DNA of 64,000 nucleotides, from the NCBI GenBank assembly GCA_040772005.1, contig JAXGYZ010000003.1, positions 130,131-194,130 on the forward strand, written 5' to 3'. The notes beneath the pieces are model-generated. The model did not search any database. It saw only the letters and a program-made list of their open reading frames with translations, and had not been told where the DNA came from. Shown here piece by piece: positions 37,412 through 58,349 of this stretch. This stretch comes from Anaerolineae bacterium (GTDB lineage: Bacteria > Chloroflexota > Anaerolineae > CG2-30-64-16). Every line of letters starts with the position of its first letter. The first letter of the stretch is position 1. The position numbers and the translations under genes were made by a program.

Positions 37412-37417
37412 TCCCGT

Positions 37418-42000: not shown

Positions 42001-42740
42001 ATGCGGCCATCCTGGTCGTGGACGACGACCCGGAGATTCGGGCCCTGCACGGCGACCTGGTCCGCACCCATTTCCCCAACTGCCGGATTCTGCTGGCCGC
42101 GAACGGGCGGCAGGCGTTGGAGCTGCTCGATGGCGGCGCACGCCCGTTGTTCGTCCTCCTGGACCTCATGATGCCGGAGCTGGATGGCGTCGGCGTGCTT
42201 GAGGCGATGCAGCGCAGTGCGCAGTTGCGGGACATTCCCGTCATCGTGCTGACGGCCCAGTGCCTGTCGGATGAAGACCTGGCCCGCCTGAATCGCGGGG
42301 TGGGCGCGATCCTGCAGAAGGGCGTCTTCTCCACGGACGAGACGCTGGCCCACATTGAGCGGGCGCTGGCGCGCAACCGGCGGCTGGGCAGCGAGTCGCA
42401 ACGGCTGGTGCGCAAGGCGATGGCCTATATGCACACCCATTACGCGCAGGACCTGACGCGCAGCCAGCTCGCGCGGAACGTGGGCCTGAGCGAGCGCCAC
42501 CTGGCACGCTGCTTTGCTGCTGAGGTGGGGCTTTCGCCCATGGATTACCTCAACCGCTACCGTATCGCGCAGGCGCGGCGCCTGCTTGATGAGAGCGACG
42601 CCGGCATCGCGCAGGTGATGGAGGCTGTTGGCTTCGGCGACAGCAGCTACTTCGCCCGCATCTTCCGCCGCGAGACCGGCATGTCACCCCGCGCCTATCG
42701 CGGCCGCAAGGACTCTACCGGTCTTCCCCGCTCCCAGTGA
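39048..42740 (+). CDS. Soluble hybrid sensor histidine kinase/response regulator: N-terminal LacI-type periplasmic-binding-fold (PBP1) sugar-sensor domain without HTH, central sensor region, HisKA + HATPase_c, two REC domains, C-terminal AraC-type HTH
   Basis: ORF 38766..42740 trimmed to ATG 39048 (MSQLKTQRP...; GGAG upstream). Features in N- to C-terminal order:
- PBP1/LacI ligand-binding signature (VGYITPRISDH...VVGFDD).
- H-box SHELRTPL.
- G1/G2 boxes (GLGVPRDEQQAIFDEF...GFGGLGVGLAI).
- Two REC (ILVVDDDPEI..., FVLLDLMMPELDG).
- AraC HTH at the end.
No TM segment detected. Confidence 0.8.
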   Translation: MSQLKTQRPRARRPRVGYITPRISDHNGLAIWSGMLETARLHGADVLCFAGGEVKHPEGAAGRANAIYDLVDRASLDGLVVWGSSLGYYAGPEATYEFCRQFGPLPLVSIGVALPGIPGVVLDSYGGERALMAHLIEVHGRRRLAFIRGPEGHREARERYRAYRDALAEYDLPFDPALVSPPYLWIQADGIEMNSNGAEAVRLFVEERRVEFDALVSTSDTFMLGALPALLERGIRVPEDVSVVGFDDKPATRLLSPALTTVQIRMRERGRQALELLLARLNGEDIPAEVLQPARLVIRRSCGCSDAVEGRGQAAGLPAGEHAEGLDALTGERRAAALAVLAQPLEAVDQPAAQAAPLLDAFLAELQGEPSGLFLPAWDALLAHTEDSEREVWDWQEVLLALREQVLPYLTADPVRLRQAEDLWHHARSHVGERAWRVQARAGHYAGQQSDRLYALSRSLALAADVPELMDILARMLPELNIASCHVALYEDPDNPAGACRLVLAYDERGRANLPPEGVQWSAPVLASGGAFGQTASRQSIVVEPLYYRDEPLGFIMLDGSRSEGQVYRVIQEQVSSALKSVRLLEENRRLYLAALDGQQAAQDRQRLAEEANRLKSRFLSMVSHELRTPLILLEGLSEMMLREGNGDRPPLPASYRQDLARIRATSQQLSGLVRDVLDLSRSQMGQLRLAVTPVDLASVLQPALLMGEQMAFGKGLDWHVEIAPGLPLVNGDAARLREVTLNLIANAVKFTARGEVRVRIEASDGTATVSVSDTGLGVPRDEQQAIFDEFRQSERTATRGFGGLGVGLAICRQIIQLHGGSIGVHSSGQEEGGSRFYFTLPALHASAGVEPAETAAWDGSTVVLLVEQADNAALLRSHLEQQGYAVDVLAAAEAGDWLARLSATPPGAVILDLQPAWEYGWRLVDALRHNQTTQGVPILLYSLLAGRDEGAVLAVDYLAKPMGAAALTQALQNLGVATSQPAENAAILVVDDDPEIRALHGDLVRTHFPNCRILLAANGRQALELLDGGARPLFVLLDLMMPELDGVGVLEAMQRSAQLRDIPVIVLTAQCLSDEDLARLNRGVGAILQKGVFSTDETLAHIERALARNRRLGSESQRLVRKAMAYMHTHYAQDLTRSQLARNVGLSERHLARCFAAEVGLSPMDYLNRYRIAQARRLLDESDAGIAQVMEAVGFGDSSYFARIFRRETGMSPRAYRGRKDSTGLPRSQ

Positions 42741-42824
42741 TGGTTCTAGCCGTTGTGGAGTGGAGCGTCCTCAGACGCGGAACGGTCCCTAGCGCGTGCC
42801 CGTCCGCGTTTGAACCGCATGCCC

Positions 42825-42846
42825 GTCCGCATTTGAGAATGCGGAC
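42825..42846 (+). terminator. Hairpin GTCCGCAT-TTGAGA-ATGCGGAC followed by TCCTCTTCTC. Candidate terminator after the hybrid kinase gene
   Basis: 8-bp stem, 6-nt loop, pyrimidine-rich tail. Weak as an intrinsic terminator. Confidence 0.35.
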
Positions 42847-43050
42847 TCCTCTTCTCAATCACGGCCCCACAATTTGACCTAATTGTATTGAAAGAAGTCC
42901 CAATCGAACAAGACACGGCCCGTCCTCGGGGAGTATCATAAGCATGCGCCCCCATGGTGTGCGCTACGCTGCCAGTATTTCCTTCTATCTATGCGGCCAC
43001 CCAAACGCGATGTTGTGCTCCCAGTGCCGTGGCAGGCGAGGAAGAACCCG

Positions 43051-43506
43051 ATGACGCAGGCTGTCACTCCAGAGACCGTGGTGATGGCAAAGAGCGCGTT
43101 GATCGCCGTCGAGGATCCGAACATCCTCTATCTGCTCCAGCGTTACGCGGAGGAGAGCGGCTTTGAGACGGCCACTGCGCACGCGAGCATGGAAGTCCTT
43201 GGCCGGGCCACGCACCTGCACCCGGCCTTCATCATTCTGGATGGCGCGCTGCCCGAAACTACCGGCCGGAAGCTGCTGTCCCGCCTACAGGCGCACGCCG
43301 ACACCTGCACCATTCCGGTCATTCTCTATATCAGCCCGGACGACCCGGCCGCCCCATGGACGGCAGGCGCCGCCGGGTGCCTGCCTAAATCGGTCAAGTA
43401 CGCGGATTTCCTGACCATGCTGGCGCACATCGGCGTGTTGCATGGCAACCATGTGAGCAGCGGCTGCGTGGCAGACGACGCAGTCACCGCCGCCCCTGAC
43501 ATTTGA
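43051..43506 (+). CDS. Stand-alone receiver-domain (CheY-like) response regulator
   Basis: REC fold with acidic pocket and phospho-acceptor ([11 protein letters not shown]...). Start is ambiguous (ATG at 43051 or 43084). No output domain. Confidence 0.55.
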
Positions 43507-43513
43507 GAACAGG

Positions 43514-44560
43514 ATGCGTCTCATGTCCGAGCAACTGAGCGAGCGCCCCAAGCTCCTTGAGGTCGTTGACCTGAAGAAGCACTTCCCCATCAAGCGCGGG
43601 TTCCTTTTCGCGAAGGAAGTCGGCGCGGTCAAAGCCGTGGACGGCGTGAGCCTCTTCATCCGCGAAGGCGAGACGCTGGGGCTGGTCGGCGAGAGCGGCT
43701 GCGGGAAGACCACGATTGGCCGGCTCATTCTGCGCGCCTATAACCCGACCGCCGGCCAGATCTGGTTCCAGGATCGCCGTATGGGGCGGGTGGATGTCGC
43801 CCGGATGAATGAGGGCGAACTGCGCGAGCTGCGCCAGAACATGCAGCTCATCTTCCAGGACCCCTACTCCTCGCTCAATCCGCGCATGACGCTGCTCGAA
43901 ATCGTCGGCGAGCCGCTGCGCAACCATGGCATTGCCAAAGGCAGCGAACTCAAGGAGCGCGTCGCCGAGCTGCTCAAGGTCGTCGGCCTGCGGCCCGAGT
44001 ACATGACCCGCTATCCGCACGCGTTCAGCGGCGGGCAGCGCCAGCGCATCGGCGTCGCGCGGGCACTGGCGCTGCATCCCCAGCTCGTCGTCTGCGACGA
44101 GCCTGTGTCGGCCCTGGACGTCTCCGTCCAGGCGCAGATTCTCAACCTGCTGCAGGGCCTGCAGGGCGACTTCGGCCTGACGTACCTGTTCATCTCGCAT
44201 GACCTGAGCGTGGTCGAGCACATCAGCGACCGCGTCGCCGTGATGTACGTGGGGAAACTTGTGGAGAGTGCCACCACGACCGAACTCTTCCTGGCCCCCC
44301 GTCATCCTTACACCGAGGCTCTGCTCTCCTCGGTGCCCAAGCCGGACCCCCGTGTCCGCACCGAGGCTGTGCCATTGACGGGTGAAGTAGCCGACCCGGC
44401 ACATCCACCCAGCGGCTGCTATTTCCATCCGCGCTGCAGGTATTGCATCGACCGGTGTACCACCGAGGAACCGGTGCTGCGGGAAATATCACCCGATCAC
44501 TTTGTCAGTTGTCACCGGGCCGAAGAGCTGCGCCTGCTCGGTGTGGCTGGCCTGGCGTAG
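43514..44560 (+). CDS. Opp/Dpp-family ABC transporter ATP-binding protein (OppF/DppF-like)
   Basis: Walker [10 protein letters not shown], signature [15 protein letters not shown], Walker [13 protein letters not shown], and the C-terminal oligopeptide-transporter extension with Cys-rich tail. Confidence 0.85.
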
Positions 44561-44623
44561 GCGGGGCTGCCTGCAACGCACGCTGTTGGCGCAACGTTTC
44601 ATTTTCAAGGAGGAAGTTAGGCA

Positions 44624-46690
44624 ATGAAACAGCGAATGATCACACGACGTGAGTTCCTGCGGCTGTCTGCGATGGGCGCCGTAGGAGCAGCGGCGGCGGC
44701 CTGCGGCGGACAGCAGACGCCGGCCCCCGCGGCCGAACCGACGGCTGCACCCGCAGCCGAACCGACCGCCGCACCTGCCGCGGAGCCGACGGCCGTCCCC
44801 GAGGCCGTCAAGGCCACTGAAGCGCCCGTCGCGGCCGCGGGCAAGTACCAGGAAGCGCCCATGCTGGCCGAACTGGTCCAGGCGGGCTCGCTCCCGCCGG
44901 TCGATGAGCGGCTGCCCATCAACCCCGCCATCATGGAGAGCTACGAGGGCATCGGTAACTACGGCGGCAACTGGCGCCGCGGCTTCAAGGGCGTGTCCGA
45001 CCGCTGGGGGCCGACCAAGCTGGTGGACCGCAACTGGGCCTGGTTCGACAAGGATCTCAACCTCCAGCCGCGCCTGATGGAGTCCTGGCAGGTCTCCGAC
45101 GATGGCCGCGAGTGGACCATCAAGCTGCGCGAGGGCACCAAGTGGTCCGACGGCACCGAGTTCACTACGGACGACTTCGCGTTCTGGTACGAACACGAAC
45201 TGCAGAACAAGAAGGTCAACGCCAGCCTGCCCACCGTGTGGCGCTCGGATGCCGAGACGCCGGTCGAGTTCACTGCGGTCGACAAGTACACGGCCAAGTT
45301 CGCCTTCACGAAGCCCAAGCCGATGCTGATCTACTACAATACGCGCGGCGGCATGGGCGGGCCGATGACCCCCAGCCACTACATGAGGAAGTTCCACGAG
45401 GACACCACCGACGACAAGGCGGCCATGGAAGCTGAGATCAAGGAGCGCGGCTACGACAGTTGGGAGCGCTACTACATCGACTACAAGTCGTGGTGGTACA
45501 TGGATCCCAACAAGCCGGTCCTGAGCCCCTGGCTGGCAAAGGGTGAGCTCTCCACCGAGCTCTTCATCATGGAGCGCAACCCCTACTTCTTCGCCGTGGA
45601 CCCGGAGGGCAAACAATTGCCCTATATCGACACCGTCACGCATCGCCTGTTCGAGTCGGATGAGGTGCTCAACCTGTGGCTGACCAACGGCGAGATCGAC
45701 ATGCAGGCCCGGCACCTGAGCCTCGCCAACCTGGCCCTCTATAAGAGCGGCGAGGAGAAGGGCGATTACGCGACGATTCTGGCCATCCATGCGAGCCACA
45801 TCGCCATGCAGATTAACCATAGCTGCAAGAATCCGCAGCTCTACGAGCTGTTCAACGATCTCAAGGTGCGGCAGGCCATGAACGCGGCGATCAACCGTGA
45901 AGAGGTCAACGAGCTCATCTTCAACGGCATGCTCAAGCCGCGGCAATACAGCCCGCTGCCTATGTCGCCGCAGTACTACGAGAAGGCCGAGAAGGCCTGG
46001 ATCGAGTATGACCCCGACCTGGCGAACCAGTTGATGGACGAGGCCGGCTACACCGAGAAAGATGCGCAGGGCTTCCGCCTGTTCAAGGACGGCAGCGGCC
46101 CGATCACCTTCATCATCGAAGGCACCGATCAGACCGGCACGCCCACCGAGGATGCGGTCCTGCTCGTGAGCAGCTACCTGGAGAAGATCGGCATCAAGGC
46201 CACCTACAAGTACTCGGAGCGCGCGCTCTACACCGAGCACTACGAGGCCAACGAGATCGAGGCGGCCTGGTGGGGCGGCGACCGCACGGTGCTGCCGCTC
46301 GTGCCGGAGGCCATCATCTTCCGCGGCGTCCAGCCGGACCGGCCGTGGTGCCCGGGCTGGGGCTTCTTCTACACCGACCCGACCAACCCCGCCGCGGTCG
46401 AGCCGCCGGCCGACCACTGGATCCGGGACATCTGGAAGATCTGGGACGAGGAGATCGTCGTCGAGGTCGATCCTGAAAAGCAGACCGCGGCCTTCAAGAA
46501 GATCCTGGACATCTGGGCCGAGCAGCTGCCCATGATCGGCGTCCTGGGCGAGCAGCCGACACCGACCATCGTCAAGAACGGCTTCAAGGGCTACCCGCCC
46601 GGTATGCCGAACGACGACACCACCGGCGACGAGCAGTTCTGCCAGAGCGAGACGTACTACTGGGACGATCCGACGAAGCATACGATGTAG
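44624..46690 (+). CDS. ABC transporter substrate-binding protein, family 5 (Opp/Dpp-type), Tat signal
   Basis: Twin-arginine leader (TRREFLRLSAMGAVGAAAAACGG), Ala/Pro/Thr linker, and 688-aa SBP_bac_5 architecture. RBS AAGGAGG. Confidence 0.85.
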   Translation: MKQRMITRREFLRLSAMGAVGAAAAACGGQQTPAPAAEPTAAPAAEPTAAPAAEPTAVPEAVKATEAPVAAAGKYQEAPMLAELVQAGSLPPVDERLPINPAIMESYEGIGNYGGNWRRGFKGVSDRWGPTKLVDRNWAWFDKDLNLQPRLMESWQVSDDGREWTIKLREGTKWSDGTEFTTDDFAFWYEHELQNKKVNASLPTVWRSDAETPVEFTAVDKYTAKFAFTKPKPMLIYYNTRGGMGGPMTPSHYMRKFHEDTTDDKAAMEAEIKERGYDSWERYYIDYKSWWYMDPNKPVLSPWLAKGELSTELFIMERNPYFFAVDPEGKQLPYIDTVTHRLFESDEVLNLWLTNGEIDMQARHLSLANLALYKSGEEKGDYATILAIHASHIAMQINHSCKNPQLYELFNDLKVRQAMNAAINREEVNELIFNGMLKPRQYSPLPMSPQYYEKAEKAWIEYDPDLANQLMDEAGYTEKDAQGFRLFKDGSGPITFIIEGTDQTGTPTEDAVLLVSSYLEKIGIKATYKYSERALYTEHYEANEIEAAWWGGDRTVLPLVPEAIIFRGVQPDRPWCPGWGFFYTDPTNPAAVEPPADHWIRDIWKIWDEEIVVEVDPEKQTAAFKKILDIWAEQLPMIGVLGEQPTPTIVKNGFKGYPPGMPNDDTTGDEQFCQSETYYWDDPTKHTM

Positions 46691-46694
46691 AACC

Positions 46695-46811
46695 GATTGA
46701 AGATTGCAGATTGAAGATTGAAGATTGGCCAGAGGTGGTGGATTGAGGATTCGTGTAATCTTCAAGCCGGGAGAAGTGTAGCTTCGCACATCTTCAATTT
46801 TCAATCTGCAA
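46695..46811. repeat. Heptamer tandem repeat (GATTGAA/GAAGATT x4-5) with inverted copies downstream. Intercistronic stem-loop element between the SBP and permease genes
   Basis: Direct units GATTGAAGATTGCAGATTGAAGATTGAAGATTGG at 46695-46728. Inverted units AATCTTCAAG at 46757-46766 and CATCTTCAATTTTCAATCTGCAA at 46789-46811. Confidence 0.6.
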
Positions 46812-46826
46812 CCCGGGAGGCTGCCC

Positions 46827-47816
46827 ATGTTTGCCTATATCGTGCGTCGGGTGCTCATCATGATTCCGACGCTGTTTCTGATCTCGATCATCTCCTTTGT
46901 CGCCATCCAGCTGCCGCCGGGCGACTACCTGACGTCGTATGTCGCCACCCTGCGCACGATGGGCGAGAACATCGACCAGGAGCAGCTGGATTCGATGCGG
47001 GAGCGGTACGGCCTGGGCCAGCCCGTGTATGTGCAGTACTTCAAATGGATCGGCGGCATCCTCCTGCGCGGGGATTGGGGCCAATCGTTCGAGTGGCAGA
47101 AGCCCGTCAAGGAGTTGATCGGGGAACGCCTGCTGCTAACGGTGATCCTGTCGTTTGTATCACTGCTGGTCGGGTGGTTCATCGCGATCCCGATCGGCGT
47201 CTATTCCGCGACTCACCAGTATTCGGTCCTTGATTACATCTTGTCTGTCATTAGTTTCATAGGGGTCGGCGTGCCCGGCTTTCTCCTCGCGCTGATCGTG
47301 ATGTACTTCGCGCAGACCCAGCTCCAGATGAATGTGGGCGGGCTGTTTTCGCAGGAGTACATCAATGCGCCCTGGAGCCTCGGGCGGGTGCTGGACATGC
47401 TGAAGCACCTGTGGATTCCGGTGGTGATTTTGGCCGTCGAGGGGACCGCCGCCGGCATCCGCACCACGCGCGCCAACCTGCTCGACGAGCTGAACAAGCC
47501 CTACGTCGAGCTGGCGCGGGCCAAGGGCATGAACGAGCTGAAGCTCATCTGGAAGTATCCCGTGCGGGTCGCGCTGAATCCGTTCTTCAGCACCGTCGGC
47601 TGGTCGCTGGCGAACCTCATTTCGGGGGCTACGCTGATTTCGGTGGTGCTGAGCCTCCAGACGACCGGCCCGATGCAACTGCGGGCGCTGACCTCGCAGG
47701 ATATGTACCTCGCCGGCAGCTTCCTGCTGCTGCTCAGTGCCCTGACCGTCATCGGCACGCTGATATCGGACATCCTGCTCGCGTGGGTTGATCCGCGCAT
47801 CCGACTGGAGCGATAA
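46827..47816 (+). CDS. Opp/Dpp-family ABC transporter permease (OppB/DppB-like)
   Basis: 329 aa, six TM helices, and the conserved binding-protein-dependent permease EAA-like loop (…ELARAKGMNELKLIWKY…). Confidence 0.85.
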   Translation: MFAYIVRRVLIMIPTLFLISIISFVAIQLPPGDYLTSYVATLRTMGENIDQEQLDSMRERYGLGQPVYVQYFKWIGGILLRGDWGQSFEWQKPVKELIGERLLLTVILSFVSLLVGWFIAIPIGVYSATHQYSVLDYILSVISFIGVGVPGFLLALIVMYFAQTQLQMNVGGLFSQEYINAPWSLGRVLDMLKHLWIPVVILAVEGTAAGIRTTRANLLDELNKPYVELARAKGMNELKLIWKYPVRVALNPFFSTVGWSLANLISGATLISVVLSLQTTGPMQLRALTSQDMYLAGSFLLLLSALTVIGTLISDILLAWVDPRIRLER

Positions 47817-47817
47817 C

Positions 47818-48999
47818 ATGACCGTCTCTGCACCGATGGACCGGCCCCTGGAGAGCCCGGGCCCGACCGAAGGCCCGGCCTCCGAAGACGAGATCGCCCC
47901 CGGCGGGGAAAGCGTCTATGTCGCACCCCCGTGGAAGCTGATGTGGTGGCGTTTCCGCAAACACAAGCTGGCGATGGTCAGCGCGGTCATCCTGATCCTG
48001 TTTTACTTCAGCGCGGCCTTCTCCGAGTTCGTCGCACCCTACATTCCGGAGCAGCCCTTCATTCGCTATAAGTTCGCCCCGCCGACCCGCATCCATTTCA
48101 TCGATGCAGAGGGACGGCCCCGGGCTCCGTTCATCTACCAGACCGTGCGCGGCGTCGATCCGGTCACGGCGCAGCCCACCTATACCGAGGATACGACCAT
48201 CCGCTATCCGATCCGGTTCTTCGTGCAAGGCGAGCCATACGAGTGGCTCGGTCTGATTCCATCGAGCCTCCACCTGTTCGGCGTGCCGGATGCCGGGGAA
48301 AACCAGGGCGTCTTTCTGTTCGGTGCGGATCGGCTGGGCCGCGATATGTTCTCGCGCATCGTTTTCGGCGGACGGCTCTCGCTGTCGCTGGGCCTGGTCG
48401 GCGTCTTTCTCAGCCTGATCCTGGGCGTCGTGCTGGGCGGCGTGTCGGGCTACTTCGGCGGGTGGGTCGACACGCTGGTGCAGCGCGTCATCGAGTTCAT
48501 CCGCACTATCCCGACCATTCCGTTGTGGATGACGCTGAGCGCGGCCATGCCGGCCAACTGGCCGGTGACGCGGGTCTATTTCGGGATCACCATCATCCTG
48601 TCGCTGGTCGGCTGGACGTTCATGGCGCGCGTCGTGCGCGGGCGCTTCCTGGCGATGCGCGAGGAAGACTTCGTGCTGGCGGCCCGGCTGAACGGCGCGC
48701 GCGAGATGCGCGTCATCCTGCGCCACATGGTGCCGTCGTTCCTCAGCTACATCATTGCGTCGCTCACGCTGTCGATTCCCGGCATGATCCTGGGCGAGAC
48801 GGGCCTGAGCTTTCTCGGCCTGGGGCTGCGGCCGCCGGCCATCAGTTGGGGCGTGCTGCTGCAGGAGGCGATGAACCTGCGCTCGCTCGTGCTGGCGCCC
48901 TGGGTGCTGGCGCCCGGCCTGGCCGTTGTGATCTCCGTGCTGGCGTTCAACTTCGTCGGCGACGGCCTGCGCGATGCCGCCGATCCGTATTCTCGTTAG
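47818..48999 (+). CDS. Opp/Dpp-family ABC transporter permease (OppC/DppC-like)
   Basis: Start at ATG 47818, 1 nt after the oppB-like stop. Long N-terminal region typical of OppC, and permease signature (…VLAARLNGAREMRVILRHM…). Confidence 0.85.
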   Translation: MTVSAPMDRPLESPGPTEGPASEDEIAPGGESVYVAPPWKLMWWRFRKHKLAMVSAVILILFYFSAAFSEFVAPYIPEQPFIRYKFAPPTRIHFIDAEGRPRAPFIYQTVRGVDPVTAQPTYTEDTTIRYPIRFFVQGEPYEWLGLIPSSLHLFGVPDAGENQGVFLFGADRLGRDMFSRIVFGGRLSLSLGLVGVFLSLILGVVLGGVSGYFGGWVDTLVQRVIEFIRTIPTIPLWMTLSAAMPANWPVTRVYFGITIILSLVGWTFMARVVRGRFLAMREEDFVLAARLNGAREMRVILRHMVPSFLSYIIASLTLSIPGMILGETGLSFLGLGLRPPAISWGVLLQEAMNLRSLVLAPWVLAPGLAVVISVLAFNFVGDGLRDAADPYSR

Positions 49000-49004
49000 T
49001 GTGG

Positions 49005-49072
49005 ACAGGATTCACAGGATTGACAGGATGATGCCGCCGGTTTTGTCCTGTGCAGCCTGTCGATCCTGTCTG
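49005..49072. repeat. ACAGGATT repeat element (3 direct units followed by inverted GTCCTGT/ATCCTGTC units). Intercistronic hairpin between oppC-like and oppD-like genes
   Basis: GACAGGATTCACAGGATTGACAGGAT...GTCCTGTGCAGCCTGTCGATCCTGTC. Same motif family as 60369-60422. Confidence 0.55.
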
Positions 49073-49089
49073 AGTTAGGAGCTTGTGGT

Positions 49090-50130
49090 ATGAAGCAGGA
49101 CCAGCTGCTCGTCGAAGTCAAGGACCTGAAGACTTACTTCTTCCTGGACGAGGGCACCGTGCGCGCGCTGGACGGCGTGGATTTCAACATCTACCGCGGG
49201 CAGACCATCGGCGTGGTGGGCGAGAGCGGCTGCGGCAAGAGCGTGACCGCGCGCTCCATCCTGCGGATTGTGCCGCGGCCCGGCCGCATCGTGAGCGGCG
49301 AGATCAACTTCTACCGCCGGCCTGAGGACAGCAGCGGGCAGATCGAGGTCCTGAAGCTGCACGAACTGGACCCGCTCGGCCAGACCATGCGCAGTATCCG
49401 CGGGGCCGAGATTGCGCTCGTGCCCCAGGAGCCGATGGCCTCGCTGAGCCCGGTCTACACCATCGGCAACCAGATCTCCGAGGCCATCATGCTGCACCAG
49501 GGGGTGAACCGGGACGTCGCGCGGCAGAAGACCATCGAGATGCTGGAGCTGGCCGGCTTTCCCAAGCCCCGCGAGCGCATCGACTCGTACCCGCACCAGC
49601 TCTCCGGCGGGCTGCGCCAGCGCGCGGTCATCGCCATGGGCCTCTCCTGCCATCCCAGCCTGCTCATCGCGGACGAGCCGACGACCGCGCTGGACGTGAC
49701 GACGGAGGCGCAGATCCTCCGCCTGATGCGCAATTTGCAAGGTGAACTCGGTATGGCTATCATGTTCATCACGCACAACCTGGGTGTCGTCGCGCAGATG
49801 ACCGAGGACGTCATCGTGATGTACATGGGCAAGGTGGTCGAATCTGCCAGCGTGGATGCCATCTTCCACAACGCAAAGCACCCGTACACCCAGGCGCTCC
49901 TGCGCTCCATCCCGCGGCTGGGCCAGAAGACGCAAGGCCGCCGTGTGCTGGAGTCGATTCGCGGGACCGTCCCGGACCCCTACACCCGGCCGCAGGGGTG
50001 TGCCTTCCACCCGCGCTGCTCTATGCGCATCCCGGGTGTCTGTGATCGGGATGTGCCGCCGTGGGTCGAGGTCGAGCCGGGGCACTTTGCGCGGTGTGTG
50101 CTCTATGGGAATCCTATGAAGACGGCATAG
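49090..50130 (+). CDS. Opp/Dpp-family ABC transporter ATP-binding protein (OppD/DppD-like)
   Basis: Walker A GESGCGKSVT, signature LSGGLRQRAVIAMGL, Walker B LLIADEPTTALD, and C-terminal Cys-containing extension. Confidence 0.85.
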   Translation: MKQDQLLVEVKDLKTYFFLDEGTVRALDGVDFNIYRGQTIGVVGESGCGKSVTARSILRIVPRPGRIVSGEINFYRRPEDSSGQIEVLKLHELDPLGQTMRSIRGAEIALVPQEPMASLSPVYTIGNQISEAIMLHQGVNRDVARQKTIEMLELAGFPKPRERIDSYPHQLSGGLRQRAVIAMGLSCHPSLLIADEPTTALDVTTEAQILRLMRNLQGELGMAIMFITHNLGVVAQMTEDVIVMYMGKVVESASVDAIFHNAKHPYTQALLRSIPRLGQKTQGRRVLESIRGTVPDPYTRPQGCAFHPRCSMRIPGVCDRDVPPWVEVEPGHFARCVLYGNPMKTA

Positions 50131-50150
50131 ATGTACTGGCCTGTGAATAA

Positions 50151-51983
50151 ATGAAGATAGTCTTATTGTTTCCGCCTTACTGGACGCCGGCCATGCCCCA
50201 CCTGGCACTGCCGGCGCTTTCGTTTTACCTCCGGTCGCACGGGCACGACGTCACGCAGCGCGACCTGAACCTCGAAGTGTTCGAGACCATGCTGACGCGC
50301 GGCTACCTGCAGCAGAGCGTAGCGCGGCTTAAGCTGGGCCGCGCCCCAGCGCGGCTGAAGCCGGGGCGCAACCCGGCGCGGCAGGCCGTCGCGCCGCCGC
50401 GTGAGCGGGTGCGCTGGGCGCTCCAGCAGGGCCCGGAGCTGGCCGATCGGGTGGAGCGCGCCGTCGCGATCATGCGCAGCCCGGAGTTCCTCGACGGCGA
50501 GGCGGGCCTGCAGGCGTACCTGACCGTCGTGCAGAGCCTGGAACTCGCCTCGCTGCCTTTCTATCCGGCGAGCCTCGATCTGCTGGGCTTCCGCCAGGCC
50601 GCGGCGGCGGACAACAGCCGCGACCTGCTCCAGGCCGTGCGCGACGAGCAACACAACCCGTTCCTCGACATCTTCCGCCGCGGCATCATCCGGGATCTTG
50701 TCGCGCTGCAGCCGGGGCTGGTCGGCATCTCCATTCCGACCGAAGGGCAGATGCTCGCCGGCATGACGCTGGCCCACCTCATCAAGCAGGCCAAGCTGCC
50801 CTGTCACATCACGGTCGGCGGGCCGCACATCACCATGCTGCGCGAGCAGCTCCCCAAGGCGCCCGCGGTCTTCACGCTCATCGACAGCGCGGTGGCGTTC
50901 GAGGGGGAAGAGCCGCTGCTGCGGCTGGCCGAGGCGCTGGAGGGTGACCGTGACCTAACCCACGTCCCCAACCTGACCTGGCGCGCCGGCTCAACGATTC
51001 GCGTGAATATTGCGGATGCATCGCCAACACACGCTCCGAGGACGATCAATCTTCAATCTTCAATCTTCAATCTTCAATCGTCCCCTGCCGTGCCGGATTT
51101 CGACGGTCTCCCGCTGGGCCGCTACCTGGCACCGTATCCCGTCCTGCCCCTGCTGACCGCGCACGGCTGCTATCACGGCGACTGCGCGTTCTGCAACGTG
51201 GGCTACGGCCGTCCGGGACACTACCGGCCCATCCGCTCAGCGGAGGTCGTCGAGCAGATGCTCACGCTGCGTCGCAAGTACGGCGTCAAGCACATCTTCT
51301 TTGCGGATGAGGCCATGACCCCGCGCAACATGCGCGAGATGTCCGCGCTGCTGTCCGCGCAGGCGGCCGAAGGGAACTCGTTCCACTGGTGCGGCTGCAT
51401 GCGCTTCGAGAAGACGTTGAGCCGGGAGCTGCTGGAGAGCATGTCCGCGGCGGGCTGCCGGATGATCATGTTCGGGCTGGAGACCGCGTCCGAGCGCATG
51501 ATCGTGCACATGGATAAGGGCGTCGAGCGCGAGCACATGAGCCGCATTCTGCACGAGAGCACTGCCGCGGGCATCTGGAACCATACCTTCTTCTTCTTCG
51601 GCTTCCCGACCGAGACGATGGCGGACGCGCAGGACACGGTCAACTTCGTCTACGCGCACGGCGACGTCATCCACTCGGCCTCGCCGGGCGAGTTCGTGCT
51701 CGAACGCTACTCGCCCGTCCACCTCGACCCGCAGAAGTTCGGCGTGCGGCGCGTCAAGCCCGCGGCCGACCTTGCCATCTACTTCGACTACGAGCTGGAA
51801 TCGGGGCTGGACGAGCAGACCGCGCGCACCATCACCGAGCGGCTGCTGGACGTGCTGCCGCGCAAGCGGTACGGGCAGTATTATGCGCAGGACGCGTACC
51901 GGCTGGTGTATGCCGGGTATCTGCGCGAGCAGGGCCGGCCGCTGCCGGGATGGCTGGTGAACGAAACTGCGATTACAGATTGA
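50151..51983 (+). CDS. B12 (cobalamin)-binding radical SAM protein
   Basis: N-terminal B12-binding Rossmann-like domain (MKIVLLFPPYW...), then a radical SAM core with CxxxCxxC (CYHGDCAFC). 610 aa. Contains an in-frame nucleotide heptamer repeat in the interdomain linker. Confidence 0.8.
   Translation: MKIVLLFPPYWTPAMPHLALPALSFYLRSHGHDVTQRDLNLEVFETMLTRGYLQQSVARLKLGRAPARLKPGRNPARQAVAPPRERVRWALQQGPELADRVERAVAIMRSPEFLDGEAGLQAYLTVVQSLELASLPFYPASLDLLGFRQAAAADNSRDLLQAVRDEQHNPFLDIFRRGIIRDLVALQPGLVGISIPTEGQMLAGMTLAHLIKQAKLPCHITVGGPHITMLREQLPKAPAVFTLIDSAVAFEGEEPLLRLAEALEGDRDLTHVPNLTWRAGSTIRVNIADASPTHAPRTINLQSSIFNLQSSPAVPDFDGLPLGRYLAPYPVLPLLTAHGCYHGDCAFCNVGYGRPGHYRPIRSAEVVEQMLTLRRKYGVKHIFFADEAMTPRNMREMSALLSAQAAEGNSFHWCGCMRFEKTLSRELLESMSAAGCRMIMFGLETASERMIVHMDKGVEREHMSRILHESTAAGIWNHTFFFFGFPTETMADAQDTVNFVYAHGDVIHSASPGEFVLERYSPVHLDPQKFGVRRVKPAADLAIYFDYELESGLDEQTARTITERLLDVLPRKRYGQYYAQDAYRLVYAGYLREQGRPLPGWLVNETAITD
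51045..51079 (+). repeat. In-frame heptamer tandem repeat (CAATCTT x4.5) inside the radical SAM CDS, encoding TINLQSSIFNLQSS
   Basis: Same heptamer as the intergenic repeats at 46695-46728 and 51971-52003. Located between the B12-binding and radical SAM domains. Confidence 0.7.
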
Positions 51984-52003
51984 AGATTGAAGATTGAAGA
52001 TTT
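51971..52003. repeat. Heptamer tandem repeat (GATTGAA x3-4) overlapping the radical SAM stop codon
   Basis: GATTACAGATTGAAGATTGAAGATTGAAGATTT. The TGA stop lies within the first unit. Confidence 0.6.
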
Positions 52004-52031
52004 CGACTCAAGGCTTCCCTGAGGGAGGGTC

Positions 52032-54605
52032 ATGAACATCGCGTACCTCGACTATCCGCTCGCGGGCGGGTACATCCACAACTGGCTGGTGGCCGGGCCG
52101 GCGGCGACGGTGGTGCCGGACCTCGGCCGCTTCACCGGCGCAGACTACAAGCTCCAGATTGCCCGGCACTACCACGAGCCGGCTTCCGGCGTCACCGAGC
52201 CGCCCGCGGAGACGCAGCCATTCGCCGCAGGCGAGGCCACACTGAAGTGGAACTACGTGCGCTGCCGGGACGACCACTACGTCGACCTGTCCGTGTTCCA
52301 CCACGAGACGACCTACCTGGCCGCGTGGGCCTATGCGGAGGTCGTCAGCGCGGCGGCGCAGGGCGAAGCCCAGCTTCGCACGGTGACGTGCACCCTCACG
52401 ACGAACGGCCCGGCCGACGTGTGGCTGAATGGTGCGCACGTCCACCGGCAGGAGCACTTCTACCACCAGTTGCCGAAGCGCGTGACCTTCGAGCTGACCT
52501 TGCAGGCGGGAGCGAACACGCTCCTGGTGCGTATGGAGCAGGTCGCGGCACGCGAGTGCCCCTATGCGATGGCGCTGCAACTCGGGACGGGCGAAGGGCT
52601 GAGCGTGCGGCTGCCGACCGCGATTGCGCCCGCCGAGCGCCGGGCGCGGTTCGAGCGCGCCTTCAATGCCGCGCATCTGCGCCAGGATGTGTTCAAGGCC
52701 GATGAGCCGGTGGCCTTCTACTGGCCGGATGGCTTTGAGGACAGGCTCAAGCTGACCGTGCGCGTGCAGACGCCCGGCCGCGAGATTTTCACCGAGGGGC
52801 ACAAGACCGCGGGCCCCGGCGTGCGGGCGGAGATGGGCCCGGCCTACCGCTTCCCGGACGGCGCGTACGACCTGCTGCTGATGCCGACCCCGCGCGAGTA
52901 TTACGTCGGTGAGATGAAGGTCTCGCGCGGCCTGCGCTGCTGGACGACGCGCGGCCGCTTCTCCGAGGAGCCGTACGGCACGCTGCCGGAGCGCAGCCGC
53001 GAGGCGCTGGTGGATGCGGCGCAGCGCGACGTGAACGTCTTCTCCGAGATCGCGAAGATGGCCCTGGGCATGTGGAGCCGCGTCAGGCTGCCCGCTATCC
53101 AGGACACCATCGCACGCATCAACCGCCGTGGCGACTGCAGCGACTTCTACCTCGTCGGGCTGCTGGGCATGGCCTACCGCTATGCCGACAATCCTGAGTT
53201 TCCCACCGAGCTGCGCCAGCCGCTGCACGACTGCATCGTCAACTTCAAGTACTGGCACGACGAGCCGGGCAGCGATGCGATGTGCTACACGACCGAGAAC
53301 CACAGCATCCTGTTCCATACGTGCGAAGTGCTCGCGGGGCAGCTCTATCCCGACGAGGTCTTCACGAACAACGGCGAGACGGGCCGCCAGCACCGCGCGC
53401 GGGGCGAGGCGCGCGCGCTGGCCTGGCTGCAGGGCCGCGCGGCGCACGGCTTCGTGGAGTGGGACTCGAACTGCTACTTCGAAGAGGACACCCTGGCCCT
53501 GACGCACCTGCTGAGCCTGGCCGAGGACGACAACCTGGCCGAGATGGCGACCGTGGTGCTCGACAAGATGCTCTTCACGATGGCGGTCAACTCGTTCCGC
53601 GGCGTCTTCGGATCCACTCACGGCCGCACCTACACCCCGCACATCAAGAGCGCGTACAACGAAGCCACGTCGGGCATGAGCCGGCTGCTCTGGGGCATGG
53701 GCGTGTTCAACAGCCACATCCTCGCGACGGTCAGCCTCGCCTGCTCGGAGTACACGCTGTCGCCCCTGCTCACGCAGATTGCGACGGACCGGCCCGAGGA
53801 ACTGTGGAGCCGCGAGCGGCACACCGGCGACCCGGCCGACTGGCGCAACTCCGGCTCGCACGCGGCCGAGGTCAACAAGGTCACGTACAGGACGCCCGAC
53901 GCCATGCTCTGCTCCGCGCAGGACTGGCACGCGGGCGAGCCGGGCTACCAGCAGCACATCTGGCAGGCGACGCTGGGGCCGGAGGCCGTGGTGTTCGTCA
54001 CGCATCCCACATGCGCCAGCGAGGACGGCTCGCACCGACCGAACTTCTGGCACGGCAACGCCACGCTGCCGCGCGTCGCGCAGTGGAAGGACGTGCTGGT
54101 AGCCGTGCACCGGCTGCCCGACGATGACTGGATGGGCTTCACCCACGCCTTCTTCCCGGCCCACGCGTTTGACGAGTACCTCGTGACCCCGCGCTGGGCC
54201 TTTGCGCGGCGGGGCGACGGCTACATCGCACTGGCTGCTGCCGGGGGGCTGGAATGGATGACGGACGGCGACAACGCGTACCGCGAGCTGCGCTCGCACG
54301 CCGCACACAACGTCTGGCTCTGTCACCTGGGCCGCCGAAGCCTGGACGGCAGCTTCGAGGAGTTCCAGCAGAAGAGCCAGGCGCTGCCGGTCGAGTTCGG
54401 TGACCTGAGCGTGCGGTTGCGCAGCCTGCGGGGCGACGAGCTGGCCTTCGGCTGGGAGGGCCCGCTGCTGCTCAACGGCGTAGAGCAGCCCATCACCGGC
54501 TTCGGGCACTACGAGAGCCCGTATTGCACGATGGAGAGCGGCGCGGACCACATGGACATCCAGTACGGAGAGACCATCATGCGCCTGCAGTTCGGGGGAG
54601 AATGA
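52032..54605 (+). CDS. Large (857 aa) cytoplasmic protein of unknown function. Possibly a heparinase II/III-like (alpha/alpha-toroid plus beta-sandwich) polysaccharide lyase/hydrolase superfamily member
   Basis: Strong RBS GGGAGGG. No signal peptide. The central region is predicted helical and rich in conserved W/Y/H/N (…YWHDEPGSDAMCYTTENHSILFHTCE…). The family assignment is tentative and made from composition/architecture only. Confidence 0.4.
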   Translation: MNIAYLDYPLAGGYIHNWLVAGPAATVVPDLGRFTGADYKLQIARHYHEPASGVTEPPAETQPFAAGEATLKWNYVRCRDDHYVDLSVFHHETTYLAAWAYAEVVSAAAQGEAQLRTVTCTLTTNGPADVWLNGAHVHRQEHFYHQLPKRVTFELTLQAGANTLLVRMEQVAARECPYAMALQLGTGEGLSVRLPTAIAPAERRARFERAFNAAHLRQDVFKADEPVAFYWPDGFEDRLKLTVRVQTPGREIFTEGHKTAGPGVRAEMGPAYRFPDGAYDLLLMPTPREYYVGEMKVSRGLRCWTTRGRFSEEPYGTLPERSREALVDAAQRDVNVFSEIAKMALGMWSRVRLPAIQDTIARINRRGDCSDFYLVGLLGMAYRYADNPEFPTELRQPLHDCIVNFKYWHDEPGSDAMCYTTENHSILFHTCEVLAGQLYPDEVFTNNGETGRQHRARGEARALAWLQGRAAHGFVEWDSNCYFEEDTLALTHLLSLAEDDNLAEMATVVLDKMLFTMAVNSFRGVFGSTHGRTYTPHIKSAYNEATSGMSRLLWGMGVFNSHILATVSLACSEYTLSPLLTQIATDRPEELWSRERHTGDPADWRNSGSHAAEVNKVTYRTPDAMLCSAQDWHAGEPGYQQHIWQATLGPEAVVFVTHPTCASEDGSHRPNFWHGNATLPRVAQWKDVLVAVHRLPDDDWMGFTHAFFPAHAFDEYLVTPRWAFARRGDGYIALAAAGGLEWMTDGDNAYRELRSHAAHNVWLCHLGRRSLDGSFEEFQQKSQALPVEFGDLSVRLRSLRGDELAFGWEGPLLLNGVEQPITGFGHYESPYCTMESGADHMDIQYGETIMRLQFGGE

Positions 54606-54608
54606 CGG

Positions 54609-55730
54609 ATGCCCATCATCGAGCCTGAGTTCATGGCGCTGACCGCGGGCCTCGACGTCGAGGCGTGGTGGGCCGAGAACGAGGCCTGCCAGCGGCCCGG
54701 TACCGACAAGCCGCGCTGCCCGGCCTCCTTCTCGCCCGACGACCACTGGATCTTCGAGTTCATGGCCGTGCCGTCGACGCTGCGCTACTATCACGACACG
54801 GATTACCGCAACGCGCTGCACGCGGAGGTTAACGCGCTCACCCGCGCGCACGTGGGCCGCGCATTCTTCGATGAGGACACCTGGCGCACGACGCCGAAAC
54901 GTATCGAGAACCTGTTCGGCTGCGAGTTCGGCTATCATGAGGGCAGCACGCCCTGGCTCACGCCGGTCACGGACGACCCGGACGAGTTCGCGCGTGTCCT
55001 CGACCGCGCAGAGGCGACCGACCTGCGGACGTGGAGCCTGCCCGAGGACTACCTGGCGGAATGGGATGAGCGCAAGGCCGCGGGCAAGCTGCTGCCCAAG
55101 CTCGGCACGGGGAGCCGCGGGCCGGCGACCATCATGACCTCGGTGCTTAAGCCGGAGACGGTGTTCTACTGGCTCTACGACCACCCGGACCTGATGCGGC
55201 GGTTCCGCGACGTGCTGGCCGTCAAGATGGTGGCGTTCAATCGCATCCTGCGCGAGTTCAGCGGGAACGACGAGCCCGGTTGGTGGATCACGGACGACAA
55301 CTGCGCACTGTTCAATCGGCGGCTGTACCGGGAGTACTGCTACCCGGTGCTGGAGCAGGTGCTGGCCGCGCTTGCGCCTGGCGATGCGCGACGCTACCAG
55401 CACTCGGACAGCGCGATGGGCCACCTGCTGGAATTGCAGTATGCGCTCGGCATCCGCGACGTCAACTACGGGCCGACGGTCGACGCCGCGCTCATCCGCG
55501 AGCGGATGCCCGACGCGATCATCAACGGGCAGATGCCGCCCATGCTGCTGCGCAACGGCAGCCCCGAGGCAATCCGGGCGCGCGTCGTGGAGGACTTCGC
55601 CAAGGCGGGCGGCACGGGGCTGCTCAACGTGACGACGGCCGGCTCGCTGGCCGCGGGCACGGGTCTCGGCCGGATGCGCTGGTTCATGCAGACGGTGCAG
55701 GAGTGCTGCCGGTACGACGTGACAGGGTGA
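54609..55730 (+). CDS. Uroporphyrinogen decarboxylase (URO-D)/MtaA-like family protein
   Basis: 373 aa. TIM-barrel-like URO-D family resemblance. Paralogous in its C-terminal half to the protein at 61879-63018 (…GDITLAEMVERVEP / …DVNYGPTVDAALIRERMP…). Start is 3 nt after the previous stop. Confidence 0.45.
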   Translation: MPIIEPEFMALTAGLDVEAWWAENEACQRPGTDKPRCPASFSPDDHWIFEFMAVPSTLRYYHDTDYRNALHAEVNALTRAHVGRAFFDEDTWRTTPKRIENLFGCEFGYHEGSTPWLTPVTDDPDEFARVLDRAEATDLRTWSLPEDYLAEWDERKAAGKLLPKLGTGSRGPATIMTSVLKPETVFYWLYDHPDLMRRFRDVLAVKMVAFNRILREFSGNDEPGWWITDDNCALFNRRLYREYCYPVLEQVLAALAPGDARRYQHSDSAMGHLLELQYALGIRDVNYGPTVDAALIRERMPDAIINGQMPPMLLRNGSPEAIRARVVEDFAKAGGTGLLNVTTAGSLAAGTGLGRMRWFMQTVQECCRYDVTG

Positions 55731-55764
55731 CAAGGTGACAGGGTGAACAGGTGAACAGGTGATG
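55719..55764. repeat. Octamer tandem repeat (GTGACAGG/GTGAACAG x5) overlapping the end of the URO-D-like CDS
   Basis: GTGACAGGGTGACAAGGTGACAGGGTGAACAGGTGAACAGGTGATG. Confidence 0.5.
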
Positions 55765-55766
55765 TT

Positions 55767-55789
55767 GGAGTCAAGGCTTTAGCCGGTTT
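55767..55789. repeat. Partial copy (left arm only) of long-hairpin repeat family 2
   Basis: GGAGTCAAGGCTTTAGCCGGTTT matches the left arm of 36234-36303 and 60474-60561. There is no matching right arm. Confidence 0.45.
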
Positions 55790-55839
55790 GGTCGCGTATG
55801 TGCTCAGTTTACCTGATAATAGTTGTAGGGGCGAGGTCA

Positions 55840-55930
55840 CCTCGCCCAAGGCGGAGTGGTGAACGGGCGACATAGCGATCACGGTATTCGCGTATTCGGG
55901 GTCGCCATTCGATTATTCGCGATGGCCGCG
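55840..55930. repeat. Degenerate relative of the MITE/ATTCG-rich repeat family upstream of the GH4 gene
   Basis: ...CGGTATTCGCGTATTCGGGGTCGCCATTCGATTATTCGCGATGGCCGCGGCCCCCTAC shares the ATTCGCGTATTCG and ATTCG(N)TTAT(T)CGCGATGGCCGCG(N)CCCCC blocks with the 173-bp MITE. Confidence 0.45.
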
Positions 55931-55962
55931 GCCCCCTACAGAACATCAAGGGAGGCATTGCA

Positions 55963-57351: not shown

Positions 57352-57362
57352 GATGGGCCATC

Positions 57363-57491
57363 CAGGCATCCTGAGCGGCGGCCTGGCAGGGCTGAAGTCG
57401 AAGGATGTGTGCATCCGCTGTGTCTGGCGCAGGCATCCTGAGCGGAGCGACCGGCCAAGCATAGCTTGGCTGGGGAGCGAAGTCGAAGGAT
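57363..57491. repeat. Imperfect tandem duplication (two units each beginning CAGGCATCCTGAGCGG and ending GAAGTCGAAGGAT) upstream of the HAD hydrolase gene
   Basis: Unit 1 is 57363-57406. Unit 2 is 57430-57491 and contains an internal GCCAAGC-ATA-GCTTGGC palindrome. Confidence 0.45.
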
Positions 57492-57510
57492 ACGGCCCGT
57501 GAGAGGTGCG

Positions 57511-58038: not shown

Positions 58039-58349
58039 GCTTTGTGATACGCCAGACGAAGGGCATCGACAAGTGCCTGGCCGAGGCGGGGCTGGACCCC
58101 GAGCGGCTGCGCATGCACGTCTCGGAGATCGCGCCGGGCACGCGCGCCCACGCGCCGCACGTGCATGACGCGGTCGAGGCGTTCTACGTGCTGGAAGGGC
58201 AGGGCACGATCGAGGTCGGGGACGAACGATATGCGGTCGGCCCGAACGAGGTCGTCATCCTCGATGCGCGCGTCCCGCACGGCCTGGAGAACACCGGCAC
58301 GACGCCCATGCGCTATCTGGTTGTCATAACGGCGAATCTGCCTTCGTAG
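58035..58349 (+). CDS. Small cupin protein (KdgF-like), second copy
   Basis: 104 aa. RBS AAGGAG. ATGA overlap with the HAD gene. Cupin motifs (HVHDAVEAFYVLEGQG...PHGLEN). Confidence 0.6.
   Translation: MSFVIRQTKGIDKCLAEAGLDPERLRMHVSEIAPGTRAHAPHVHDAVEAFYVLEGQGTIEVGDERYAVGPNEVVILDARVPHGLENTGTTPMRYLVVITANLPS

Follow-up and report, generated by a model that had tools for sequence, protein, structure and literature searches.

Introduction

Among the long simple repeats of bacteria, heptamers are the most over-represented (Mrazek 2007, as cited in PMC4692102 and PMC4679880), and the first tandem heptanucleotides were described from Calothrix (Mazel 1990, as cited in the same two papers). In this study, we describe tandem arrays of the 7-nt unit GATTGAA at three sites in a 64,000-nt stretch of the genome of an Anaerolineae bacterium (contig JAXGYZ010000003.1); this whole stretch is called the window below, and array positions are counted within it. 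One array lies in the spacer between the gene of a family-5 solute-binding protein (SBP) and a permease gene of an ATP-binding cassette (ABC) transporter (site 1), one within the coding sequence of a B12-binding radical SAM protein (site 2), and one over the stop codon of that same gene (site 3). These arrays are ordinary members of the known heptamer class, now in Chloroflexi, and probably not a switch. The best explanation is that they belong with the intergenic heptamers of Xanthomonas, Nostoc and Beggiatoaceae and with the short tandemly repeated repetitive (STRR) sequences of cyanobacteria. In our literature search, no published description of the heptamer class in Chloroflexi was found. 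New here are a unit that does not form a G-quadruplex (G4), an in-frame coding copy, and a documented replacement of the unit across three sites.

Rehm et al. (2015, PMC4692102) described heptamer arrays of the same anatomy, with the unit GGGAATC in Xanthomonas and GGGGA(C/T)T in Nostoc. Their arrays typically have about 4 copies and are overwhelmingly intergenic, stop-adjacent arrays on the sense strand were already among them, inverted pairs able to form stem-loops are frequent, and sister species hold arrays in the same spacers with varying length and sequence. They accompany all functional gene classes without a link to any of them, phase variation was judged unlikely, and no function is known (PMC4692102). 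The arrays of the window are likewise tandem 7-nt units in three or more copies, adjoin stop codons, include an inverted pair, and occupy orthologous spacers with variation; they are also dispersed above chance within the window, and so they show all the features of heptameric simple sequence repeats (SSRs) as these have been defined (Mrazek 2007; Rehm et al. 2015). They differ from the arrays of Rehm et al. in the Chloroflexi host, the AT-rich unit, the one in-frame array within a gene, and the concerted replacement of units at three sites. Because the AT-rich GATTGAA cannot form a G-quadruplex, the published G4 rationale is inapplicable here.

MacGregor (2015, PMC4679880) reported TAACTGA direct repeats in Beggiatoaceae, cyanobacteria and Bacteroidetes, with a patchy occurrence across phyla. 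The forward TAACTGA repeat has stops in all frames and the reverse repeat is open, and it was predicted that forward copies would only overlap gene ends, while reverse copies would be tolerated in proteins between modules (PMC4679880). The arrays described here follow the same frame logic and have a similarly patchy phylum distribution. The TAACTGA repeats, however, are mostly located immediately 5' of a start codon and hardly ever inverted, whereas our arrays come after stop codons, and at one of the sites they form a direct plus inverted hairpin. The STRR heptanucleotides of cyanobacteria are reportedly non-coding and dispersed, with several unit families per genome and an unknown function, and the units that define them are said to be CCCCAGT, TTGGTCA and CAACAGT of heterocystous cyanobacteria. 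Tandem heptanucleotides are common to both cases, but neither the unit GATTGAA nor the Chloroflexi host falls within that definition.

Hairpins of repetitive extragenic palindromes (REPs) and of bacterial interspersed mosaic elements (BIMEs) reportedly occupy operon spacers of E. coli, such as malE-malF. REPs shield the upstream mRNA from 3' exonucleases, and within about 15 nt of a stop codon they can lower translation. They are single imperfect palindromes of conserved sequence that are mobilised by RAYT transposases. Site 1 is alike in being a stable hairpin a few nucleotides past the stop of an SBP gene and before a permease gene; it is different in that its stem is built of tandem heptamers and not of the REP consensus. 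The phase-variable SSRs of Haemophilus and Neisseria, for example the heptanucleotide repeats at hmw1A (PMC8262952), resemble site 2 as short intragenic tandem tracts with a unit length that is not a multiple of 3. Those tracts are long, variable between and within strains, and found in surface or modification genes, whereas site 2 has the same copy number in all the lineages compared and lies in a metabolic gene.

Taken together, the three arrays are probably heptameric SSR arrays whose units turn over in place under the filter of the reading frame, with the direct and inverted pair of site 1 acting as a REP-like mRNA hairpin.

Three arrays of one repeat family

The three arrays (Table 1) are one repeat family, real and far beyond chance. 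Tandem Repeats Finder called a period of 7 at each site, with 4.7 copies and 92% matches to the unit GATTGAA at 46695-46727, 4.9 copies and 100% matches to the unit TCAATCT at 51046-51079, and 3.7 copies and 100% matches at 51977-52002. The TCAATCT of site 2 is the reverse complement of the GATTGAA unit. A search with two units, allowing up to 2 mismatches, gave 13 matches against 0.08 expected per shuffle, and none of 100 shuffles gave as many; all 13 fall in the three array clusters, the inverted units at 46793-46813 included. The tandem heptamers that a preliminary description had noticed at the three sites are thus present as it described them. As the window has about 67% G+C, the AT-rich unit is conspicuous. 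Three of the four arrays, when the inverted units of site 1 are counted, are non-coding or overlap a stop codon. An independent assembly of the window's species (L008, GCA_040770385.1) has coding and stop arrays that are base for base the same; this comparison covers sites 2 and 3 only, the 5' part of L008 being different or chimeric sequence. A protein from an 834-kb NCBI contig (P0130) is also identical to the radical SAM protein of the window. Because both agree with the window, the arrays are not an assembly artefact.

The orientation of the arrays at the three sites is explained by frame logic. The forward repeat (GATTGAA)n reads D*RLKIE in every frame and so has a stop in all three frames, while the reverse repeat (TTCAATC)n reads FNLQSSI in every frame and is open throughout. 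Forward arrays are therefore possible only at or after a stop codon, and a gene that enters one must end within 7 codons, as the radical SAM gene does at site 3. Only a reverse array can persist within a gene, and the array of site 2 is reverse. The stop codon of the radical SAM gene (TGA, 51981-51983) lies inside the third array, as had been pointed out before, and the array supplies the last residues (ITD) of the protein as well. It had also been claimed that changes in repeat number would shift the frame. This holds for a gain or loss of one or two units, but not for three units (21 nt), which keep the frame.

Array age and unit turnover among relatives

The locus was compared with five sister lineages, whose radical SAM proteins share 90-92% amino acid identity with that of the window (P0001, P0121/P0122, P0123 and P0125), and with an outgroup at 81% that is represented by two near-identical assemblies (L005/L006). 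Arrays of 7 bp were found at the same three sites in the five sisters wherever the locus covers the site (Table 2), and the linker of all sisters has five units of the form (AACCTKC)n, which encode ANLQP(S/A)TFNLQPG. The outgroup linker is the sister linker minus exactly 21 nt, or 3 units; at the junction, the outgroup has GACCTGC|GCCCGGC, and the sisters have AACCTGC, three extra units, and AACCCGG. At the gene end, the outgroup reads GCA GGC TGA, and the sisters read GCA GGT TGA followed by AGGTTGCAGGTT (further GGTTGMA units). Distant orthologues have quite different linkers without an array. The alignment of orthologues, which had been proposed as a check on whether the linker insertion is lineage specific, indicates that it is: the insertion is present in the window and the five sisters and absent from the outgroup and the distant orthologues. 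On these comparisons, the arrays appear to date back to the divergence of the six lineages or beyond, and they look as if they had grown in place from a seed, which at site 3 would include the ancestral stop codon.

Table 2. Type of repeat unit at the three sites in the window and its relatives.
Locus	Site 1	Site 2	Site 3
Window	GATTGAA type	five perfect AATCTTC units	GATTGAA type
L131 (P0123)	GATTGAA type	AACCTKC	GTTGCA GGTTGAA GGTTGCA GGTT...
L001-L004 (P0001)	GGTTGAA/GGTTAGCA/GGTTGCA/GGTTACA units	AACCTKC	GTTGCA GGTTGAA GGTTGCA GGTT...
L132 (P0125)	GGTT-type as L001	AACCTTC	GTTACA GGTTGAA GGTTGCA GGTT...
L133 (P0122)	locus excludes site 1	AACCTKC	GTTGCA GGTTGAA GGTTGCA GGTG...
L005/L006 (81% aa)	loci exclude site 1 spacer	no array	no array

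Compared with the sister units, each unit of the window at sites 2 and 3 is changed at the same position, where the forward strand reads A in place of G. As only the window lineage has the GATTGAA type at all three sites, with perfect arrays at sites 2 and 3, the units seem to have been replaced in concert. Site 2 is 100% complementary to site 3 over 25 nt (94% over 33 nt) and 97% complementary to site 1 over 34 nt. Independent point mutation cannot account for arrays at sites 2 and 3 that are perfect, complementary and changed in every unit; the pattern calls either for homogenisation within arrays combined with exchange among them, or for selection that favours one unit throughout. At site 1, L001 and L132 have the GGTTRMA type. 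Because GATTGAA is present in L131 only at site 1, where L131 is nearly identical to the window but without 32 nt between two ATCTTCAA repeats, the simplest reading of the alignments is that the site 1 type may have spread to sites 2 and 3 in the window lineage. As far as the aligned loci can tell, the arrays are shown to change by whole 7-nt units and by repeat-mediated deletions, and the unit sequence to have been swapped, apparently in concert, between arrays 0.9-4.3 kb apart. The replacement may have come about by gene conversion, or by repeated slippage plus selection; in general, the arrays would be shaped by slippage plus inter-array exchange, filtered by the constraints of the reading frame. 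The locus is a natural experiment in which the unit changed together at three operon sites while the coding copy stayed at five units.

The coding copy in the radical SAM linker

The repeat-encoded peptide TINLQSSIFNLQSS comprises residues 298-311 (nt 51042-51083) and is placed between the Pfam matches to the B12-binding domain (residues 177-259) and to Radical_SAM (residues 337-500). The reading frame agrees with that of the orthologues on both sides of the array. The preliminary description was right to place the copy in frame in the linker between the two domains. In an AlphaFold2 model (mean predicted local distance difference test score, pLDDT, 67), residues 289-312 have a pLDDT below 50 and form a coil without secondary structure. 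The length of the linker is hypervariable among orthologues: some have hardly any, and others have about 60 residues. The DNA of the linker inserts of three further lineages is strongly hairpin-forming (z -9.5, -4.0 and -3.2), as against z -1.9 to +1.2 in coding control windows of the same genes. Because hairpin-type repeats have entered the linker in frame in several lineages, it is a permissive site, and this inter-domain linker is thus a place in a protein that repeatedly absorbs repeats of the intergenic type. From the low-confidence model and the variability of the linker, we infer that the coding copy is probably a tolerated, length-constrained insertion of five units in a disordered linker, without a switching role. 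It also gives a warning for annotation, as repeats can encode the C-terminal residues and the linker peptides in genes of this kind.

The idea that the other linker inserts are dispersed repeats was not borne out. A self-BLAST of the inserts of L128, L129 and L130 against their own loci found no second copy, and only their hairpin character was shown.

The hairpin between the SBP and permease genes

The computed fold shows that the direct and inverted units of site 1 form the long stem of an intercistronic RNA hairpin in the spacer between the SBP stop codon and the permease start codon (-51.8 kcal/mol, z -3.97). The inverted pair 46704-46725/46790-46811 is 95% complementary over 22 nt. The SBP gene ends with a TAG 4 nt ahead of the array, the hairpin begins about 14 nt past this stop, and it ends 4 nt short of GGGAGG, the permease gene's ribosome-binding site. 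The sister hairpins at the same site are stronger still (L001, -66.5 kcal/mol, z -7.49; L131, z -6.1; L132, z -7.5). Four stem pairs covary between the unit types with pairing kept, in a four-sequence alignment that holds only two independent alleles. In the distant orthologous operons L128, L129 and L130, the same junction of 176-313 nt contains strong but unrelated hairpins (z -7.0, -7.3 and -4.6).

A stable hairpin formed by an imperfect palindrome in an operon spacer near a stop codon, which characterises REP and BIME elements, was found in the window and its sisters with z -4.0 to -7.5. By this analogy and by the recurrence of hairpins at the junction, the hairpin of site 1 would fit a REP-like intercistronic mRNA element. 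It would most likely protect the upstream SBP message or decouple it from the rest, leading to more SBP than permease. The preliminary description had placed a stem-loop exactly where elements of differential mRNA stability are found in ABC operons. The fold is indeed strong, and a role in stability is suggested by the analogy and the recurring hairpins only. The array of site 3 was also considered as a local structure and was rejected, as it folds no better than shuffles (z -1.1).

Distribution in other genomes

When one genome per species was scanned, (GRTTGMA)3 was found in at least 119 stretches, and roughly 17 were expected in random sequence by our own estimate. The matches listed come from Chloroflexota (Oscillochloris, Kouleothrix, Roseiflexus, Caldilineaceae and Thermoflexus), Acidobacteriota, Cyanobacteria (Moorena and Trichormus), Bacteroidota, Verrucomicrobiota and others, and many of these arrays have 5-20 units. 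Among the GC-rich loci of the matches listed, 23 of 70 arrays start between -20 and +14 nt of a stop codon on the same strand and one of 70 does so in antisense, when the stop codon of a credible gene is required; most of the start codons downstream lie at a distance of more than 70 nt. A rule of this kind has been published for other heptamers (PMC4692102). Stop-free GATTGCA arrays also obey this rule of starting at a stop, for example in 'TAG GGATTGCAGATTGCA'. Among the matches listed, genomes with several matched contigs mostly have one unit variant (eight of nine by our own tally). A strictly genome-specific unit was rejected, as assembly CAZTMA01 has GATTGAA at the unrelated locus L018 and GGTT-type units in the operon L132, and a metagenome-assembled genome of Roseiflexaceae mixes variants.

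It is conceivable, though we think it rather doubtful, that sense heptamer arrays at or just past stop codons are a widespread functional 3'-end element that is independent of G-quadruplexes and whose units are kept uniform by a trans reader or by directed conversion. Such placement recurs in Chloroflexota, Acidobacteriota, Cyanobacteria, Bacteroidota and others. If the reading were true, the switch from GGTTGMA to GATTGAA at three sites would be the trace of such a reader or of directed conversion.

Alternative explanations

Previously, two origins had been offered for the arrays, a mobile short-repeat element that invaded the coding linker and a slipped-strand, phase-variable tract. The former would be a miniature mobile element, a copy-and-paste array that came from elsewhere in the genome and entered the linker and both spacers. 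One unit at three sites within 5.3 kb, the GATTGAA array at an unrelated locus of the sister genome that also holds L132, the single unit variant in most multiply matched genomes among the matches listed, the uptake of unrelated hairpin repeats by the linker in other lineages, and a 173-bp element that is present twice in the window with 99% identity and represents active small mobile DNA all speak for it. Nevertheless, the array borders, when compared with the empty outgroup site, have neither the terminal inverted repeats nor the target-site duplications of a miniature inverted-repeat transposable element (MITE); the outgroup differs by exactly three units with seed-like sequence, such as the junction heptamer, on both sides; the stop array opens with the ancestral last codons (GCA GGY TGA); and no transposase association is known or was seen. 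We therefore regard an invasion as unlikely and this earlier claim as weakly supported; growth in place by slippage followed by exchange between arrays would fit the compared sequences better than the arrival of a mobile element. As for the phase-variable tract, slippage by one or two units would frameshift the radical SAM enzyme off and on. The coding array of the window, perfect over 35 nt, is the kind of tract that slips, its unit length of 7 is not a multiple of 3, and related short-unit arrays do vary between lineages, as seen in an 8-mer array with 5 or 6 units and in the 32 nt absent from L131. Yet the coding array has five units in 12 of 12 sequences from six lineages, the window counted, and it is identical in the two assemblies of the window's species and in four sister-species contigs from different samples. 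Because no copy-number variation, and hence no frame-shifting difference between strains, was found in these 12 assembled sequences, phase variation is unsupported. Moreover, the sister coding arrays are degenerate, five units are short for an efficient switch, and the gene encodes a metabolic B12-binding radical SAM enzyme in an operon of ABC uptake and glycoside hydrolases, not a surface, restriction-modification or virulence factor. This agreed with the judgement of Rehm et al. on the published heptamer arrays (PMC4692102). Although not exhaustive and drawn from assembled sequences, the evidence appears to weigh against a genetic switch, and we have dropped the earlier suggestion of a phase-variable tract as highly improbable.

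Two further explanations give the repeat unit itself a function. The arrays could be rows of binding sites for a trans factor, such as a cold-shock or S1-type protein that binds RNA or single-stranded DNA with one protein per 7 nt, and the sites at gene 3' ends would then influence termination, recycling, re-initiation or RNA decay. Binding to heptamer repeats, one protein on each unit, is known for cold-shock proteins (reviewed in PMC4679880). The strong sense polarity at stop codons across phyla, stop-free units included, the distance of most downstream starts, the usual uniformity of units within a genome (all among the matches listed), and the joint change of unit at all three arrays of the window are in line with such a reader. 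On the other hand, no candidate trans factor was identified, close lineages can have different units at one site, both unit types occur within one genome, and the units of site 1 are base-paired in the hairpin and not single-stranded, which makes this explanation quite unlikely. Alternatively, the RNA of the coding array might pair over a long range with the stop array (0.9 kb to its 3' side) or with site 1 (4.3 kb to its 5' side), which would loop out the region of the radical SAM domain and give a double-stranded site for processing or translation control. The complementarity of site 2 to both partners would permit this, and both partners switched the unit together in the window lineage with pairing preserved. 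However, sequence exchange between arrays yields the same complementarity as a by-product, the sister lineages have only about 13 contiguous complementary bases, and translating ribosomes would hold the coding arm unpaired; long-range pairing is very unlikely to be the explanation.

Several points weigh against the reading of the arrays as SSR arrays that turn over in place with a REP-like hairpin at site 1. The proposed growth in place rests on one outgroup lineage, and a loss of three units there would look identical. Since the operon is a recombination mosaic, part of the sharing of array types may be due to recombination between lineages and not to conversion within a genome. The AlphaFold2 model is only moderate and has other low-confidence segments, several of them inside the radical SAM domain, so the low pLDDT at residues 289-312 is weak support for disorder. 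A start 0-7 nt past a stop codon is also sharply preferred by stop-free units such as GATTGCA, and frame logic fails to explain this preference because these units show it as well. The effect of the hairpin on the mRNA is argued by analogy, and hairpin-type repeats occur in many spacers of the window's genome, so the hairpin between the SBP and permease genes may reflect passive accumulation and not selection. The site 1 hairpin has no U-tract, none of the arrays had a T-tailed hairpin in a terminator scan, and an Rfam search of positions 42000-61000 (19 kb) with E up to 0.1 gave 0 matches. With neither a U-tract nor a terminator call, an intrinsic terminator was rejected.

Gene context

The arrays sit in one co-directional gene string according to open reading frame (ORF) and Pfam calls (Table 1), and the best protein matches are of Chloroflexi, of the Anaerolineae/Anaerolineales type. 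The radical SAM gene is directly followed by a gene for an 857-aa protein without a Pfam match (52032-54605), which is kept at the same place in all close relatives (850-867 aa), with a gene resembling uroporphyrinogen decarboxylase (URO-D) next to it. Further downstream, orthology with annotated loci places URO-D-like, GH4, HAD, cupin and GH88 genes. The conservation of the 857-aa protein and its URO-D-like neighbour hints at a B12/radical SAM pathway, so far uncharacterised, that is linked to the transporter.

Table 1. Features of the operon and positions of the heptamer arrays in the window.
Feature	Position	Strand	Description
Family-5 SBP gene	44624-46690	+	Pfam SBP_bac_5, E 3.7e-58
Site 1 direct array, 4.7 units	46695-46728	+	GATTGAA GATTGCA GATTGAA GATTGAA GATTGG; 5' arm of intercistronic hairpin
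Site 1 inverted units (AATCTTCAA ... ATCTTCAATTTTCAATCTGCAA)	46757-46811	-	3' arm of intercistronic hairpin
First ABC permease gene, 3' of hairpin	46827-47816	+	Pfam BPD_transp_1
Second permease gene	47788-48999	+	ORF
ATPase gene	49090-50130	+	ORF
B12-binding radical SAM gene, 610 aa	50151-51983	+	carries in-frame array; ends within site 3 array
Site 2 coding array, 4.9 perfect antisense units	51045-51079	-	TCAATCT on coding strand; encodes INLQSSIFNLQSS
Site 3 array at radical SAM stop	51971-52003	+	GATTACA GATTGAA GATTGAA GATTGAA GATTTCG

The N-terminus of the radical SAM protein contains an in-frame 27-bp tandem duplication at 50321-50382 (ARLKLGRAP/ARLKPGRNP), and one 9-aa copy of it is missing from P0122, P0123, P0125 and P0002. 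The length differences among the radical SAM proteins compared are due to this duplication and to the start-codon calls. In the SBP gene, the 3' part (window 45501-46500 against L001 1-1050) is only 64-69% identical, as against mostly 90-97% elsewhere in the operon; the SBP gene has been exchanged by recombination. The arrays were considered as recombination breakpoints, and this was rejected, as the breakpoint of the L001 SBP allele lies about 300 nt before the stop, inside the gene and not at the array.

Other repeats in and around the window

The host genome is crowded with short-unit arrays and hairpin repeats, and it contains many unit families of 7-9 nt. The next three features belong to the class of the heptamer arrays but are built of other units. 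A 9-nt unit (GACAGGATT)n forms a direct then inverted hairpin on the forward strand at 49005-49070, 6 nt past the stop of the second permease gene (-41.3 kcal/mol, z -4.26); it is base for base the same in L001-L004, with flanking genes that are only 91-97% identical. A second direct plus inverted hairpin of (GACAGGATT)n was found on the same strand at 60369-60422, again a short distance past a stop codon (-47.5 kcal/mol, z -7.0). An 8-nt array (GTGACAGG/GTGAACAG) at 55719-55762 (+) gives the TGA stop of the URO-D-like gene. It has 5 units in the window, 6 in L001, 3 in L133 and none in the outgroup L005, and its variants differ too. AT-rich spacer arrays were also observed at 12223-12250 (CAACGAATG x3), 29734-29756 (GAATTAC/TTACGAA) and 33874-33925 (AAACGGAT, direct plus inverted).

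The 173-bp element is found at 10729-10901 and 36026-36198. It has inverted termini (GCGTTTCA ... TGAAACGC) and an interior rich in ATTCG/CGAAT, which gives it a MITE-like look, and related fragments were observed at 22200-22310 and 55880-55940. A stretch of about 172 bp in another spacer of the window (10538-10709) matches L005 9956-10128 at 94.8%, where it lies at a different locus, in the spacer after the URO-D-like gene. The match suggests that this stretch may be a small mobile element common to the window and outgroup genomes.

G+C-rich palindromes (CCTCACCCCC..CTCTCCTGG..CCAGGAGAGGGGG..GGGGGTGAGG) lie between convergent genes at 31095-31178 and 37292-37417 of the window, at about 6090-6180 of L005 and at 8900-8990 of L128. 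A related palindrome is translated in frame in the radical SAM linker of another lineage (P0008, ...PLPYEGRGDGFPLPRREGGQGEG). Another hairpin family (GGAGTCGAGGCTTCAGCCGG ... CCGGCTGAAGCCTCGACTCC) occurs in spacers of the window at 36233-36305, 55766-55790 and 60470-60570, and also in L001 (10137-10209), L130 (3245-3305) and L133 (5655-5725). At one hairpin of this family, L003 is without about 100 bp relative to L001, which is a presence/absence polymorphism within the sister species.

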